A stretch of DNA of 50,015 nucleotides, taken from the IMG/VR virus record IMGVR_UViG_2917403263_000001; one strand, 5' to 3'. Under the pieces are notes generated by a model. It made no database searches and was not told where the DNA came from. It worked only from the letters and a program-made list of their open reading frames with translations. Below are positions 29,750 through 48,462 of this stretch, piece by piece (position 1 is the stretch's first letter; each line of letters begins with the position of its first letter). Source of the DNA: a virus (Duplodnaviria > Heunggongvirae > Uroviricota > Caudoviricetes). Made by a program: the position numbers and the translations under genes.

Positions 29750-29824
<75 letters not shown>

Positions 29825-29827
29825 ATA

Positions 29828-29903
<76 letters not shown>

Positions 29904-32263: not shown

Positions 32264-33385
32264 CTAGTGAATTTTGCCTCTAAGAGTTCGGTAAGATTGT
32301 AGTGAAACAACATCACCACTTCCTGGCAGTTCATGAACCGCAGGAAGATCATCTCCAACTAACTCATAAAAAATGTCCACTTCTATATCCATTTCATCAG
32401 CTATACGCTGTGGGTCGTATCCTAACTCTTCAAATAAAAACGATAAAGCCCGACGGAATAACTCAGGACGCTCATGAGGGATTAGATAATCTTCTTTTTC
32501 ATCAATAGCTTCCCCTTTCCGTTTCAACCCCATAAATGCAGTTCTGTACTGCTCATCAGTCAAAAGTCCTAATTGATGAGCCCTGTAAACAATGGCAGCC
32601 TTACTTACTTTCCATGTCAACTTAAATTGGCTTAGTCCCTGCCAATTTATCCTCCCCCCCACAGGTCTTGGAAAATATTTCGCCATCGACGTTCTGGGAA
32701 GCAACAGAGCAGAGGCAAAACGGTTTGCCTGGGATTCAGTTAATCTATCACCAGTAGAAATTCCTTCATGAAGAATCAAATGGGCAACCTCATGAGCAAT
32801 ATCAAAGCGTTGCCTACAAGGTGAATTTTTAGCTGTATTTCGAACAATAAAAGGCCTTCGTAGAGGAACAGACAGTGCATCTACTTCATCCGAAACGGAG
32901 TCAAATGAAGTAACAAACGCCCCAAGTTTCTCGGCCAGGCGAGTCATATTTTCAATTGGGCCAAAGCCTAAGCCCCACTCAATACGACATTTTTCTGCCG
33001 CTCGCTCGATATCTTCTTGTGTATGGACACGAAATTCAGGAAATCGAACAGGTGACAAATTAAGATTATCTTCAAATACATCAATAAAACGACGATAAAA
33101 CTCAGCCTTAGCGAGTGTTGATAGCTTCGTTGACATCCTTGTCGAGGCGCGTTTACGAAAATGTACAATCTCTTCATTAACAGGAGAATGTTCCTGCCCT
33201 TCGAAAAAGGCGGGCTTCACGCGCAAAACCTCGGCTAATTTATTTATAAGCTCTGGGGATGGAGTAGCTGAACCAGACTCCAGTCGCTGTACATACTGGC
33301 GTGTTTTTTCAACCTTCTCAGCAACCTGCTCCAGAGATAGCTCGTGATACAGACGAGCAAGTCTTAAATTAGTACCGTTAAACAC
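32264..33385 (-). CDS. XRE-family HTH fused to ImmA/IrrE-type zinc metallopeptidase (COG2856-like)
   Basis: N-terminal HTH LSLEQVAEKVEKTRQYVQRLESG; HEXXH motif HEVAHLILHE; 373 aa. Confidence 0.8.
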   Translation of the reverse strand: MFNGTNLRLARLYHELSLEQVAEKVEKTRQYVQRLESGSATPSPELINKLAEVLRVKPAFFEGQEHSPVNEEIVHFRKRASTRMSTKLSTLAKAEFYRRFIDVFEDNLNLSPVRFPEFRVHTQEDIERAAEKCRIEWGLGFGPIENMTRLAEKLGAFVTSFDSVSDEVDALSVPLRRPFIVRNTAKNSPCRQRFDIAHEVAHLILHEGISTGDRLTESQANRFASALLLPRTSMAKYFPRPVGGRINWQGLSQFKLTWKVSKAAIVYRAHQLGLLTDEQYRTAFMGLKRKGEAIDEKEDYLIPHERPELFRRALSFLFEELGYDPQRIADEMDIEVDIFYELVGDDLPAVHELPGSGDVVSLQSYRTLRGKIH

Positions 33386-33395
33386 ATTTCACCCA

Positions 33396-34037
33396 CTATT
33401 TGCTATTTTGTTTCTTTTCCTTCTCAGTCTTAGACGCACTGATAGGTTCTAGTTCGATAGGTACCGGTGCTGGAGGTACATCATCGACAGAGTTCAGCAT
33501 AACAACACGGTCCGCACCATATGTCCAAGTTGACACGATCTCACCAAACACGTTATAGCCATTAAAAATGACTTTACCACCCTCGCCTTCAAATTCAGGC
33601 TTTTCAACCACAAAGCGATGCATAGTTGGAGTGGTCTCCTCTGACTCAAAGAGTCGATCAGCATCGTTTCTTTTGAAAAAACCGCGTTTCTTGGGATTAT
33701 CTGCGTCATCAGTAAAGAAACGAATAGGGACATTCCCAATTGAAAACGTAAGATCCATGCCAGGATTAAGTAGTCTTAACCAGTCATATGTCTTTCGTAC
33801 GCACATTTGTAGCAACGCCTGCCGCTGACGCCCAAATGTACAACCACCACGAGTGTAATTATCATCATAGGGCGATGACAATAACTCATGAGTAATATCC
33901 TGTATCCTGAGCAACTCCTCAGCTATTATGGTTAAACGATCCTCTGTTAACTCAGGAAAGAACTCCCAAGGGAATGGATGGTTCTGCATAGACACATCTC
34001 CGTCTAATCCGTGCAAAAAACGACTTTTGTCAACCAA
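33396..34037 (-). CDS. Hypothetical protein, first gene of the two-gene cassette
   Basis: 213-aa ORF (possible internal start MQNHPFPW); 10-nt gap to the HTH-peptidase gene; AT-rich; no family recognised. Confidence 0.5.
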   Translation of the reverse strand: MVDKSRFLHGLDGDVSMQNHPFPWEFFPELTEDRLTIIAEELLRIQDITHELLSSPYDDNYTRGGCTFGRQRQALLQMCVRKTYDWLRLLNPGMDLTFSIGNVPIRFFTDDADNPKKRGFFKRNDADRLFESEETTPTMHRFVVEKPEFEGEGGKVIFNGYNVFGEIVSTWTYGADRVVMLNSVDDVPPAPVPIELEPISASKTEKEKKQNSK

Positions 34038-34069
34038 GATATTGGTGCATATTCATAATTTTGTCAACC
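34038..34069 (-). promoter_or_regulatory. Candidate promoter of the two-gene cassette
   Basis: Consensus TTGACA -35 hexamer (complement of 34062-34067) immediately downstream of the terminator; -10 assignment uncertain. Confidence 0.35.
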
Positions 34070-34094
34070 AATAAAAAACCCGCCGAAGCGGGTT
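34070..34094 (-). terminator. Intrinsic terminator downstream of hok-like gene / upstream cassette boundary
   Basis: aacccgc-cgaa-gcgggtt hairpin followed by U-run on the minus strand. Confidence 0.65.
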
Positions 34095-34159
34095 AAGCGC
34101 GGGTGCGTTGAGGATGCCTGACACATCAGAGGTGGCGGGGGTTTACCCCGCCTGGTCTC

Positions 34160-34315
34160 TTACTCCTCAGGTTCGTAAGCTGTGAAGACAGCGACCTCCG
34201 TCTGGCCGGTTCGGATTCGTACCTCGCAGAGGTCTTTCCTCGTTACCAGTGCCGTCACTATGACGGTTAAACAGATGACGATCAGGGCGATTAACATCGC
34301 CTTTTGCTGCTTCAT
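34160..34315 (-). CDS. hok: Hok/Gef-family type I toxin
   Basis: 51 aa MKQQKAMLIALIVICLTVIVTALVTRKDLCEVRIRTGQTEVAVFTAYEPEE; SD aaggag; the longer in-frame ORF 34160-34372 may be the mok-like leader. Confidence 0.8.
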   Translation of the reverse strand: MKQQKAMLIALIVICLTVIVTALVTRKDLCEVRIRTGQTEVAVFTAYEPEE

Positions 34316-34582
34316 AGCCTGCTTCTCCTTGACCTTTCGGTCCGTAAGAGGCAATCTATATGTGACGAGCATATAGGGGCCTCACTTCGATTTATAGTCG
34401 GGTGGGGCTTTTCTCTATCTGCCTTTGGTAGCATGCCCGAGGCAGATAGCCTCAAGCACCCGCAGCAATTCTACTTAACTATCTTTTTCCCGCAAATCGT
34501 TTTTATCCCCAGCGGCAAATCGAATACACCATCAGCGCCACCGCCATTGCAATTCCTACCGTTGTGAATGCTTCAGGCCAAC

Positions 34583-35006
34583 TCATTGATTCACCTCCTG
34601 CGGCGGTTCTGGTAGCGGCATCCAGTGGGTTACATTGCGGCTCTGTGTTTCGAAGAACTCCTCACCATTGCGGACAACATCAAAAAACTCACTGTCTCGA
34701 TATTGCGCATAAAGAACGAATGCGCCATCACATAAAATAATTACGTGCTGACCATCATCTGGCATTCGCTCACTACAGCTTATCCAAGCATCCGGAGCTA
34801 CCGGGTAGTTGCCCAATAGCTCGTTCAACTTCACCTTAATCTCCACATTTCTCAGCTTTAGCACTATTGGTAGGTCTGACTTTCCGGTTAATGCTAATGC
34901 GAGATTTTCTGGAGTAATGAGAGCAGTTATTGTTTTCCCCATTGCCAGACGAATAATCATTCGTATCTCTCGATCGTCACATGCTCCCGGTCGAACAATT
35001 GATATT
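34583..35006 (-). CDS. DUF551-like phage protein
   Basis: Start MNGQISIV (SD aaggag); C-terminal WISCSERMPDDG..THWMPLPEPP. Confidence 0.55.
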
Positions 35007-35018
35007 TGTCCATTCATA

Positions 35019-35537
35019 TCAATCTCCTTTTCCATGAAACAGGTGCTCACGACTGGATTTCCAGAATATCCATGCCAGATCAACATTCGGGTCCTGGTAA
35101 TTCATCCCTTCGTTGGCACGAAGCAATAATGTTTCATGGTTTTTATCACCCGCATGAAACCTGACAAGTGCTTCGAACTGTTCGCGACCATCATCTGGCA
35201 TTCGCTCACTACAGCTTATCCAACCATCCGGAGTTACCGAAATTGGCGGCGCGGCATATAGCTTACGGGTCTGAACACCTGCCCCCTGACATTTCTCTTC
35301 CTCAACAAATCCTTCGTAAACGCATTCTCCGCAATCTTCCCATTCTCCCCATTCATCATATTCTGCATCCCACTGGCGATACTGATATGCCACTGGCTCT
35401 GCTTCCAACGATGCCAGCGCAATACGAAACACATTGGCAAGCAGGCTGTTTGAAGATTGGTTATCGTGCGCCGCATCGCTCAGAAAGCCAGTGATGAATG
35501 ATTTAATCTCTGCGCTTTCTCTGGTAATAGTTGCCAT
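35019..35537 (-). CDS. DUF551-domain phage protein (paralog)
   Basis: Start MATITRES; contains DGWISCSERMPDDG; shares a 48-bp near-identical DNA segment (35192-35240) with 34755-34803. Confidence 0.5.
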   Translation of the reverse strand: MATITRESAEIKSFITGFLSDAAHDNQSSNSLLANVFRIALASLEAEPVAYQYRQWDAEYDEWGEWEDCGECVYEGFVEEEKCQGAGVQTRKLYAAPPISVTPDGWISCSERMPDDGREQFEALVRFHAGDKNHETLLLRANEGMNYQDPNVDLAWIFWKSSREHLFHGKGD

Positions 35538-35538
35538 A

Positions 35539-35757
35539 TCAGTTTTCCTTATACGGATTAATTTTATTGTGCAGTGTGTTGAACGAGGCCCATACCACGT
35601 CGTTATACAATTCAATAACTGGCTCAATTATTTTCCCGATTCCCCATACCAGAATTAACGGGGATATCGGTATCATCAACACGATAAACAGAATGAGAAA
35701 CAGGAATTCTGTTGTTCGACTTCTTCGCGGATAATTTTTCCTGAATAGTGTAGGCAT
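35539..35757 (-). CDS. Small membrane protein (72 aa)
   Basis: SD aaggag before ATG; hydrophobic core FLFLILFIVLMIPISPLILVWGIG. Confidence 0.4.
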   Translation of the reverse strand: MPTLFRKNYPRRSRTTEFLFLILFIVLMIPISPLILVWGIGKIIEPVIELYNDVVWASFNTLHNKINPYKEN

Positions 35758-40775: not shown

Positions 40776-41183
40776 ATGGATACAAGAACCCTAGGCCAGC
40801 GAGTTCTGGCACGACGAAAAGAATTACGCCTAACACAACGAGAAGCTGCACGCCTCGCTGGGGTAGCTCACGTCACAATTTCGCAATGGGAAAGAGACGA
40901 AACCCAACCAGTCGGGAAGCGGTTGTTTGCTTTAGCGGATGCGCTGAAGTGCTCGCCTACATGGCTAATGTTTGGTGACGAAGACAAGGCACCAGTACCA
41001 GCACAAGAACTTCATGTGGAAACCGAGTTAACTCCCAACCACAAAGAATTGATCGAATTATTCGATGCTCTTCCATCCTCCGAGCAGGAAGCCTTGCTGT
41101 CTGAAATGCGCGCAAGAGTAGAGAATTTCAATAAACTCTTCGAAGAAATGCTTAAAGCGCGTAAAAACAAATCAATAAAATAA
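40776..41183 (+). CDS. CI-like repressor (XRE-family HTH)
   Basis: 135 aa; HTH LRLTQREAARLAGVAHVTISQWERDE; divergent from cro-like gene; flanked by operator dyads. Confidence 0.7.
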   Translation: MDTRTLGQRVLARRKELRLTQREAARLAGVAHVTISQWERDETQPVGKRLFALADALKCSPTWLMFGDEDKAPVPAQELHVETELTPNHKELIELFDALPSSEQEALLSEMRARVENFNKLFEEMLKARKNKSIK

Positions 41184-48086: not shown

Positions 48087-48281
48087 ATGCGGTATGAAAA
48101 AGTCAAACCATGCCCTTTTTGTGGTTGTCCATCAGTAACGGTGAAAGCCATTTCAGGATATTACCGCGCGAAGTGTAACGGATGCGAATCCCGAACCGGC
48201 TATGGTGGAAGTGAAAAAGAAGCACTCGAACGATGGAATAAACGAACCACTGGAAATAATAATGGAGGTGTTCATGTATAA
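48087..48281 (+). CDS. ralR: Restriction alleviation protein Lar / RalR
   Basis: MRYEKVKPCPFCGCPSVTVKAISGYYRAKCNGCESRTGYGG; matches Rac Lar/RalR (recalled). Confidence 0.8.
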   Translation: MRYEKVKPCPFCGCPSVTVKAISGYYRAKCNGCESRTGYGGSEKEALERWNKRTTGNNNGGVHV

Positions 48282-48462
48282 AATTACCGCCACTATTGAA
48301 AAGGAAGGTGGCACTCCTACTAACTGGACAAGGTACTCAAAAACAAAATTAACCAAATCAGAATGCGAAAAAATGCTCTCAGGTAAAAAAGAAGCAGGCG
48401 TTTCCAGAGAGCAGAAAGTAAAACTGATAAATTTTAATTGCGAGAAAATTCAGTCCTCGTGA
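48276..48462 (+). CDS. ydaC: YdaC-like small protein
   Basis: MYKITATIEKEGGTPTNWTRYSK..; SD ggagg; overlaps ralR end. Confidence 0.55.

Follow-up and report, generated by a model that had tools for sequence, protein, structure and literature searches.

What does the short open reading frame in the nin region of this prophage encode, and does it stand alone or belong to a complete regulatory locus? The original prediction for the window (the whole stretch of 50,015 nucleotides that was analysed) described a Hok-type toxin gene with a strong Shine-Dalgarno (SD) sequence just upstream of a terminator, together with a long hairpin in the leader or antisense region. Our analysis indicates that the locus is very probably a complete hok/mok/sok type I toxin-antitoxin (TA) module of the HokD/HokW subgroup, carried by a Rac-like lambdoid prophage as a self-contained cassette within its nin region. 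The locus is real, but it is already known and common. As far as can be judged from the DNA, those defining features of hok/sok that are testable on sequence are present, from the toxin frame to the fold-back elements of the mRNA, together with a predicted Sok. By analogy with the systems that have been studied by experiment we infer the transcripts and their ends, the processing of the mRNA, the instability of Sok, the toxicity in the host and the biological role that applies here.

The toxin gene and its genomic context

The hok gene is located on the minus strand (34160..34315) and its translation gives a small hydrophobic product of 51 amino acids, MKQQKAMLIALIVICLTVIVTALVTRKDLCEVRIRTGQTEVAVFTAYEPEE, which has the conserved motif TRK-LCE...EVA. 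This peptide matches the Pfam family HOK_GEF (PF01848) with 82.9 bits, where the cut-off is 22 (E = 1.2e-23, model positions 1-42 of 42), and all 51 of its 51 positions are identical (100%) to HokD/RelF of Escherichia coli K-12. The assignment to the Hok family, which had been proposed from a conserved motif, is therefore borne out, with the gene on the minus strand. Given the identity to HokD/RelF and the homology to HokW, the peptide would be expected to be toxic in its host. The SD sequence, predicted to be strong, is AAGGAG (34325..34330, minus strand), located 9 nt before the ATG; it is sequestered by CUCUU in a local hairpin. That hairpin (helix 6) is 99.8% paired in the alignment of homologues described below, and the inner stem shows covariation from one locus to another (GACC/GGUC, GCC/GGC and GCGC/GCGC).

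One further property of the coding region concerns RNA editing. TadA-dependent A-to-I editing, which changes Tyr to Cys, has been described in the hokC, hokD and hokE mRNAs at a cysteine-46-type position (preprint, bioRxiv 10.1101/2025.08.07.668861). In the hok gene of the window the codon of Tyr47 is UAC followed by G (UACGAA; window positions 34174-34177, minus strand).

The surroundings of the gene agree with the placement in the nin region that had been suggested, as hok lies between the replication genes (DUF1376/DnaT and P-like) on one side and NinB-like, YbcO and Q-like genes on the other. Read on the minus strand from high to low coordinates, the genes upstream of hok are YdaT-like, DUF1376/DnaT replication, lambda-P-like, DUF1627, DUF977, Ead/Ea22 and two DUF551 genes. 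On the 3' side of the cassette, the same strand carries a two-gene unit (33396-34037 and 32264-33385), followed by a NinB-like gene (DUF1367), YbcO and a Q-like antiterminator, past which two tRNA genes, a holin and an endolysin are found. A cI-like repressor is encoded on the plus strand (40776-41183), and the right part of the window, with recE, recT and intR, resembles prophages of the Rac type.

The predicted hok transcript

A consensus scan of positions 33950-34650 called no sigma-70 promoter on either strand, and so the promoters of hok and Sok were placed by homology only. The putative -10 box of hok, TAGAAT (34468..34473, minus strand), aligns with TATGAT of plasmid R1, and both boxes are located 6 nt upstream of the respective mRNA start. 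The segment AGTTAAGTAGAAT is kept in most prophage homologues and the sequence further upstream is not; the sole candidate for a -35 element, TTGCGG (34495..34490), is poor.

The full-length hok mRNA is predicted to span about 392 nt of the minus strand (34070..34461). Its 5' end at 34461 was set by homology to R1 and by the start of the Rfam model (GGGUGCUUGAGG), and its 3' end by an intrinsic terminator (34070..34094, minus strand) with a stem of seven pairs, five of them G-C, followed by a T-run. The terminator stem (34094..34077) begins 66 nt past the hok stop codon, in line with the terminator that had been expected just 3' of the gene. The minimum free energy (MFE) of the full-length transcript is -164.5 kcal/mol, which corresponds to z = -7.0 in relation to dinucleotide shuffles.

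The long hairpin pointed out in the original prediction exists, but it is not the antisense RNA; it corresponds to the stem-loop at the 5' end of the hok mRNA (34415..34449, minus strand; inverted repeat I1). In its core CTATCTGCCT (34415-34424) pairs with AGGCAGATAG (34440-34449), and the stem extends to arms of 21 nt (34404-34424 and 34440-34460). The 5' stem (helix 2) is 97.4% paired among the homologues, and A-U to G-C double changes occur in it. The possibility that this hairpin represents Sok was rejected on the grounds of homology to SokW, according to which Sok ends at GGGGCUUUU (34412), just before the hairpin. At the other end of the transcript, the 3'-untranslated region contains the hairpin GGCGGGG-UAAAC-CCCCGCC (34134..34152, minus strand), which is expected, on the model of R1 (PMC9841398), to protect the 3' end of the mRNA once it has been processed. 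This hairpin (helix 17) is 99.8% paired, and three of its pairs display double changes.

The mok frame and the leader

The mok reading frame (34160..34372, minus strand) consists of 70 codons, is in frame with hok and overlaps it completely. Its ATG at 34372 is located 57 nt 5' of the hok ATG and is preceded, at a distance of 7 nt, by the SD sequence GAGG (34380..34383, minus strand). The same geometry of mok and its SD sequence is common to mokW of phage 933W, mokC of K-12 and the R1-type plasmid locus, and PHROG 251 ('MokW-like host killing') matches the mok frame with 113 bits. A Sok-target hairpin, CUAUAUG-CUCGUCA-CAUAUAG (34356..34376, minus strand), is predicted by folding around the mok start; the segment is hypervariable and the pairing is conserved in only 69% of the homologue alignment, and we place no reliance on it.

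The Rfam model RF01794, which carries the name 'sok', matches the locus over its entire length (34461..34313, minus strand; model positions 1-157 of 157) with 110 bits, a gathering score of 59 and E = 3e-24. It would be tempting to read such a match as a marker of the antisense RNA. This reading was rejected, as the model fits the strand of hok with 110 bits, whereas the opposite (antisense) strand scores only 17.9 bits. It follows that the model describes the hok mRNA leader, from the 5' end of the mRNA to the hok AUG. A 'sok antitoxin' match to RF01794 consequently marks the hok leader and not the strand of the Sok gene. In addition, automatic annotation pipelines label only 'hokD' at such loci, leaving mok and Sok unannotated.

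Fold-back elements and alternative pairings

Four short segments of the minus strand correspond to the regulatory elements of the hok mRNA. The translational activator element tac, GGGUGCUUGAGG (34450..34461), pairs in the full-length MFE structure with the fold-back inhibitory element fbi, CCUCAACGCACCC (34101..34113; inverted repeats I2 and I4), and with the upstream complementary box ucb when the 3' end is lacking. The box ucb itself, AAGCCCCAC (34402..34410), is the anti-SD sequence of mok, and it pairs either with the mok SD or, in the truncated RNA, with tac. The fourth element, the downstream complementary box dcb (GCCUC, 34348..34352), is the partner of the mok SD region in the centroid structure of the truncated RNA.

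In the full-length MFE structure tac and fbi, which also show up as an 8/8 inverted repeat, form 12 pairs, and the pairing between ucb and the mok SD is present in the same structure (helix 4, 100% paired, three pairs with double changes). A likewise closed 5'-3' structure is predicted by folding for the R1-type locus. When fbi and the 3' end are removed in silico, tac pairs with ucb, and in the centroid structure the mok SD region pairs with dcb. This is the change from a closed to an open form that has been described for R1, where the roles of ucb and dcb were defined (PMC9841398).

To see how far these structures are shared, they were mapped on an alignment of 65 sequences (62 distinct), consisting of the window, 933W, IMG/VR prophage loci with an identical toxin and the R1-type locus. 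Among the 62 distinct homologues, 96.1% of the cells of the full-length structure are paired, compared with 38-44% when the partners are slid by one to three columns, and changes on both sides are seen in 18 pairs. The tac/fbi pairing is 99.1% paired, its only substitutions leading from G-C to G-U. The alternative pairings are equally complete (tac/ucb 99.8%, mok SD/dcb 100%); as these segments are nearly invariant, the figures express conservation and not covariation. It should be mentioned that MAFFT misaligns the 3'-untranslated region of R1, which results in 'unpaired' cells of R1 in helix 1; for this reason tac/fbi of the R1 type was tested separately, by duplex search and by folding.

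Covariation of tac and fbi becomes visible at a larger distance. A scan of genomes for a 19-nt pattern from the leader yielded 116 stretches, 36 of which (34 distinct loci) are followed by a Hok-like ORF. The remaining stretches come from unrelated MAGs, have no Hok-like ORF downstream and were discarded as probable chance matches. The 34 loci belong to Escherichia, Shigella, Pseudocitrobacter, Kluyvera, Klebsiella, Photorhabdus and others. In 31 of them fbi is located 45-58 nt after the stop codon and in one at 80 nt; it is absent from the other two, one a copy from Shigella whose Hok ORF is degraded, the other an E. coli locus of the hokC type, for which the duplex z values are +1.2 and -0.7. 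The paired sequences change in concert across loci, being GGGUGC/GCACCC in one group, to which the window belongs, GGGCGC/GCGCCC in Photorhabdus and GGCGC/GCGCC in the R1 type. The search for fold-back elements that had been suggested as a check has thus recovered both tac and fbi, paired in the MFE structure, conserved, and covarying across the family.

The predicted antisense RNA

Positions 34364..34412 of the plus strand are predicted to encode a Sok-like RNA; the annotated SokW occupies the homologous place in 933W. The predicted Sok is located next to the hairpin that the original prediction had pointed out. It has a length of about 49 nt, with its ends mapped by alignment from SokW. It would start at G34364 with a single-stranded 5' tail of 11 nt, continue as a hairpin and finish with UUUU, the U-run at 34409-34412. 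The Sok strand folds with -19.3 kcal/mol (z = -3.4), whereas the sense strand of the same segment reaches only -8.5. Part of this asymmetry comes from a position at which the sense strand has a C.A mismatch and the Sok strand a G.U pair; the mismatch is kept in all four loci compared, those of R1, hokC, 933W and the window. Such a conserved C.A/G.U asymmetry is what would be expected if selection acted on the terminator hairpin of Sok.

The Sok promoter is the weakest point of the case. Placed by homology, the putative promoter (34329..34357, plus strand) consists of a -35 element TTGACC (34329-34334), a 17-nt spacer and a -10 box CAATCT (34352-34357); its positional homologues are TTGCGC-N17-TATCCT in R1 and TTGCCT-N17-TAACCT in 933W. 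The -10 box has only two of six consensus matches, owing to a deletion of 1 nt in relation to TAACCT/TAATCT of most homologues, and the output of Sok could therefore be low. On the other hand, the same combination of a short hairpin and CAATCT occurs in every IMG/VR locus with the short variant that was examined. That these loci keep CAATCT, and that the variant is found in 619 E. coli genomes, argues against a recent defect.

The Sok hairpin occurs in two forms, the short one of the window and one that is 21 nt longer (as in 933W), and its stem (34375-34408) contains compensating changes. Among the 5426 complete E. coli genomes the short variant is present in 619, in 28 of them at an identity of at least 99%. 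An exact 32-nt search for the short hairpin in contigs representing one genome per species did not find it; considering its frequency in E. coli, this empty result reflects sampling.

Distribution and comparison with known systems

A query of 550 bp covering the locus matches 4725 of the 5426 complete E. coli genomes, in which the gene is annotated as hokD, with 96% as the best identity. It also matches 83 phage records, among them that of 933W, where hokW, mokW and sokW are annotated. hok genes have been reported to be enriched in prophages (bioRxiv 10.1101/2025.08.07.668861).

The hokW/mokW/sokW locus of 933W/Sakai Sp5 has the same three-gene architecture as the locus of the window and 85.7% DNA identity over its length. 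The elements tac, 5' stem, ucb, SD-hok hairpin and fbi are identical, and mok is again an in-frame ORF of 70 codons. In both cases the carrier is a lambdoid prophage and a DUF551 gene adjoins the locus. The differences are concentrated in a few places. HokW and Hok of the window differ at five C-terminal positions (VDYESEK against TAYEPEE). In the Sok hairpin of the window 21 nt are absent, so that Sok is predicted to measure about 49 nt as against 71 nt, the -10 box of Sok is 1 nt shorter than in 933W, and the allele of the Sok 5'-tail/target segment is CUCGUCACAUAUAG in the window and CUGAACACAUGUAG in 933W. The window has a clear intrinsic terminator, which is absent from the aligned position of 933W. 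Finally, the locus of the window is located in the nin region and is co-directional with the early-right genes, whereas that of 933W is found close to where the record ends, beyond an 8.4-kb CDS (L0134).

The hokW-sokW pair has been demonstrated by experiment to be a type I TA system that depends on RNase III and Hfq, with a toxic HokW that is neutralised by sokW (PMC8621323). In that work, sokW was lost after mitomycin C, and the effect on phage release was two-fold. The sole direct experiment on a prophage homologue (PMC8621323) suggests that the module assists lysis and the release of phage after induction.

Plasmid R1 (parB hok/mok/sok) presents the same order and spacing of elements as the window, along with the predicted 5'-3' closure. 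In both, the -10 box of the hok promoter is followed by tac, the 5' stem, ucb, the mok SD, the mok ATG, dcb with the Sok promoter, the hok SD hairpin, hok, the 3' hairpin, fbi and the terminator. The two toxins are about 44% identical, a value taken by analogy from the published comparison of HokW with Hok of R1 (PMC8621323). The window differs from R1 in the sequences that form tac/fbi, in a shorter 5' stem-loop and in its carrier, which is a prophage and not a plasmid. A role in post-segregational killing is established for R1 only.

Two loci of K-12 illustrate what such a module looks like when parts of it are missing. The hokD (relF) gene of the Qin prophage, which is also lambdoid, encodes the identical toxin of 51 amino acids and starts 71 bp 3' of relE; it lacks the leader with tac, mok and sok, whereas the copy of the window has a complete regulatory region. 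The HokD peptide, which in K-12 is only a leaderless relic, consequently occurs in prophages together with its full RNA control region. The hokC/mokC/sokC (gef) locus has a very similar leader with the same tac, an in-frame mokC that begins 57 nt upstream, and a SokC annotated at the equivalent position. It is cut by IS186 20 nt after the hokC stop codon, which removes fbi, while the locus of the window is uninterrupted.

Proposed mechanism and alternative explanations

Toxicity, cleavage of the duplex by RNase III and 3' processing are steps of the hok/sok pathway that have been worked out for R1 (PMC9841398). Following R1 and hokW-sokW, a stable hok mRNA of about 392 nt would be weakly expressed from the minus strand. 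In the full-length RNA tac would pair with fbi and ucb would sequester the mok SD, so that this RNA would be neither translated nor bound by Sok. Slow exonucleolytic trimming from the 3' end would remove fbi, allow tac to pair with ucb and make the mok start region accessible. The short, unstable Sok (plus strand, 34364..34412) would, for as long as it is made, pair with the mok start region, and the duplex would be destroyed by RNase III. Once the supply of Sok stops, be it through loss of the element, a shut-off of transcription or induction of the prophage, mok would be translated and hok along with it by translational coupling; the Hok peptide of 51 amino acids would then insert into the inner membrane and the membrane potential would collapse. 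Candidate roles, again by analogy, may be the stabilisation of the prophage, the exclusion of other phages or a faster lysis after induction.

Could the locus be intact in sequence and yet functionally silent, a hitch-hiking remnant comparable to the hok loci on the chromosome of laboratory E. coli? The silence might have several causes, among them a weak hok promoter, a lack of processing, Sok supplied by co-resident copies or read-through antisense transcription. This explanation draws on the fact that the scan called no consensus promoter and that the -35 region of hok is not conserved among homologues. It is also in keeping with the state of the K-12 loci, since the leaderless hokD and the interrupted hokC imply that decay of such loci is common. 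Moreover, it has been reported that the chromosomal hokA, hokB and hokC loci cannot bring about post-segregational killing (see the summary in bioRxiv 10.1101/2025.08.07.668861), which means that an intact sequence is no guarantee of that role. However, every regulatory element is present in the window and pairs as in R1, the toxin and mok frames are both intact, and the restriction of fbi substitutions among homologues to G-C to G-U implies purifying selection on the pairing; furthermore, a prophage homologue, hokW-sokW, is active (PMC8621323). Taken together, we regard a silent locus as unlikely.

An even more sceptical explanation would be that phage genes are separated here by a non-coding spacer, in which the ORF and the hairpins arose by chance; the shortness of the ORF (51 codons) and the empty promoter scan speak for it. 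It is refuted by the Pfam match (E = 1e-23), the Rfam match (E = 3e-24), the 100% identity to HokD, the fold z of -7 and the matches in 4725 of 5426 complete E. coli genomes, and practically no weight can be given to it. The preferred reading is therefore that of a complete hok/mok/sok module. As such, the locus adds one more case of type I TA cargo in the lambdoid nin (accessory) region, here beside RosmerTA, and on its own it opens no new question.

Variability of the Sok tail and its target

If any aspect of the locus merits attention on its own, it may be how strongly the Sok 5' tail varies together with its target. Positions 34360-34377 (columns 127-148 of alignment A2), where 12-18 nt around the mok start make up the single-stranded Sok 5' tail and the loop that it targets, are by far the most variable part of the locus. 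The mean column entropy is 0.75-0.89 bits in this segment, whereas it does not exceed 0.05 in tac, fbi and hok, with the qualification that the set was chosen for an identical Hok and low coding variation partly follows from that selection. Among 60 prophage copies with the identical toxin, at least 15 alleles of the Sok-tail/target segment are found, and an E. coli genome can contain up to 10 matching places.

A tentative explanation, which we hold to be possible although rather doubtful, is that the Sok-tail alleles and the indel of the Sok hairpin reflect diversifying selection for private Sok/hok specificities, and that, in the nin position of this copy, N-antiterminated early-right transcription, running across the cassette head-on to the Sok promoter, could couple the release of Hok to induction. 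If this were true, lambdoid prophages residing in the same cell would each keep their own addiction or lysis-timing module without cross-neutralisation.

Neighbouring elements

Several other features of the region were recorded. The two-gene unit directly 3' of the hok terminator matches the anti-phage RosmerTA defence pair on the minus strand, comprising RmrT (33396-34037, PADLOC 306.9 bits) and RmrA (32264-33385, 665.7 bits), the latter with an HTH and an M78 peptidase domain. A type I TA locus and a defence TA locus are in this way located side by side in the nin region, as they are in the closest E. coli prophage (L002). Two exact direct repeats of 13 nt, TTTTGTCAACCAA (34025-34037 and 34059-34071), 34 nt apart, are placed between the hok terminator and rmrT, and each contains TTGACA on the minus strand; they may serve as a promoter or an operator of the RosmerTA unit.

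Immediately 5' of hok, two overlapping ORFs of the minus strand (34583-35086 and 35019-35627) match DUF551 and share the motif WISCSERMPDDG. A DUF551 gene flanks hokD in some E. coli prophages as well, and the two genes may travel together.

The window also contains the small RNA RalA (48280-48458, minus strand; full-length match to Rfam RF02694 with 213 bits), in surroundings that match recE, recT and intR. In the Rac prophage, RalA acts as the antitoxin of the type I pair RalR/RalA, and a second type I TA system is accordingly present in the same prophage as hok. Lastly, phage-borne genes for tRNA-Gly(UCC) and tRNA-Thr(UGU) are located on the minus strand (29750-29903), 3' of the Q-like gene and 5' of the lysis genes.
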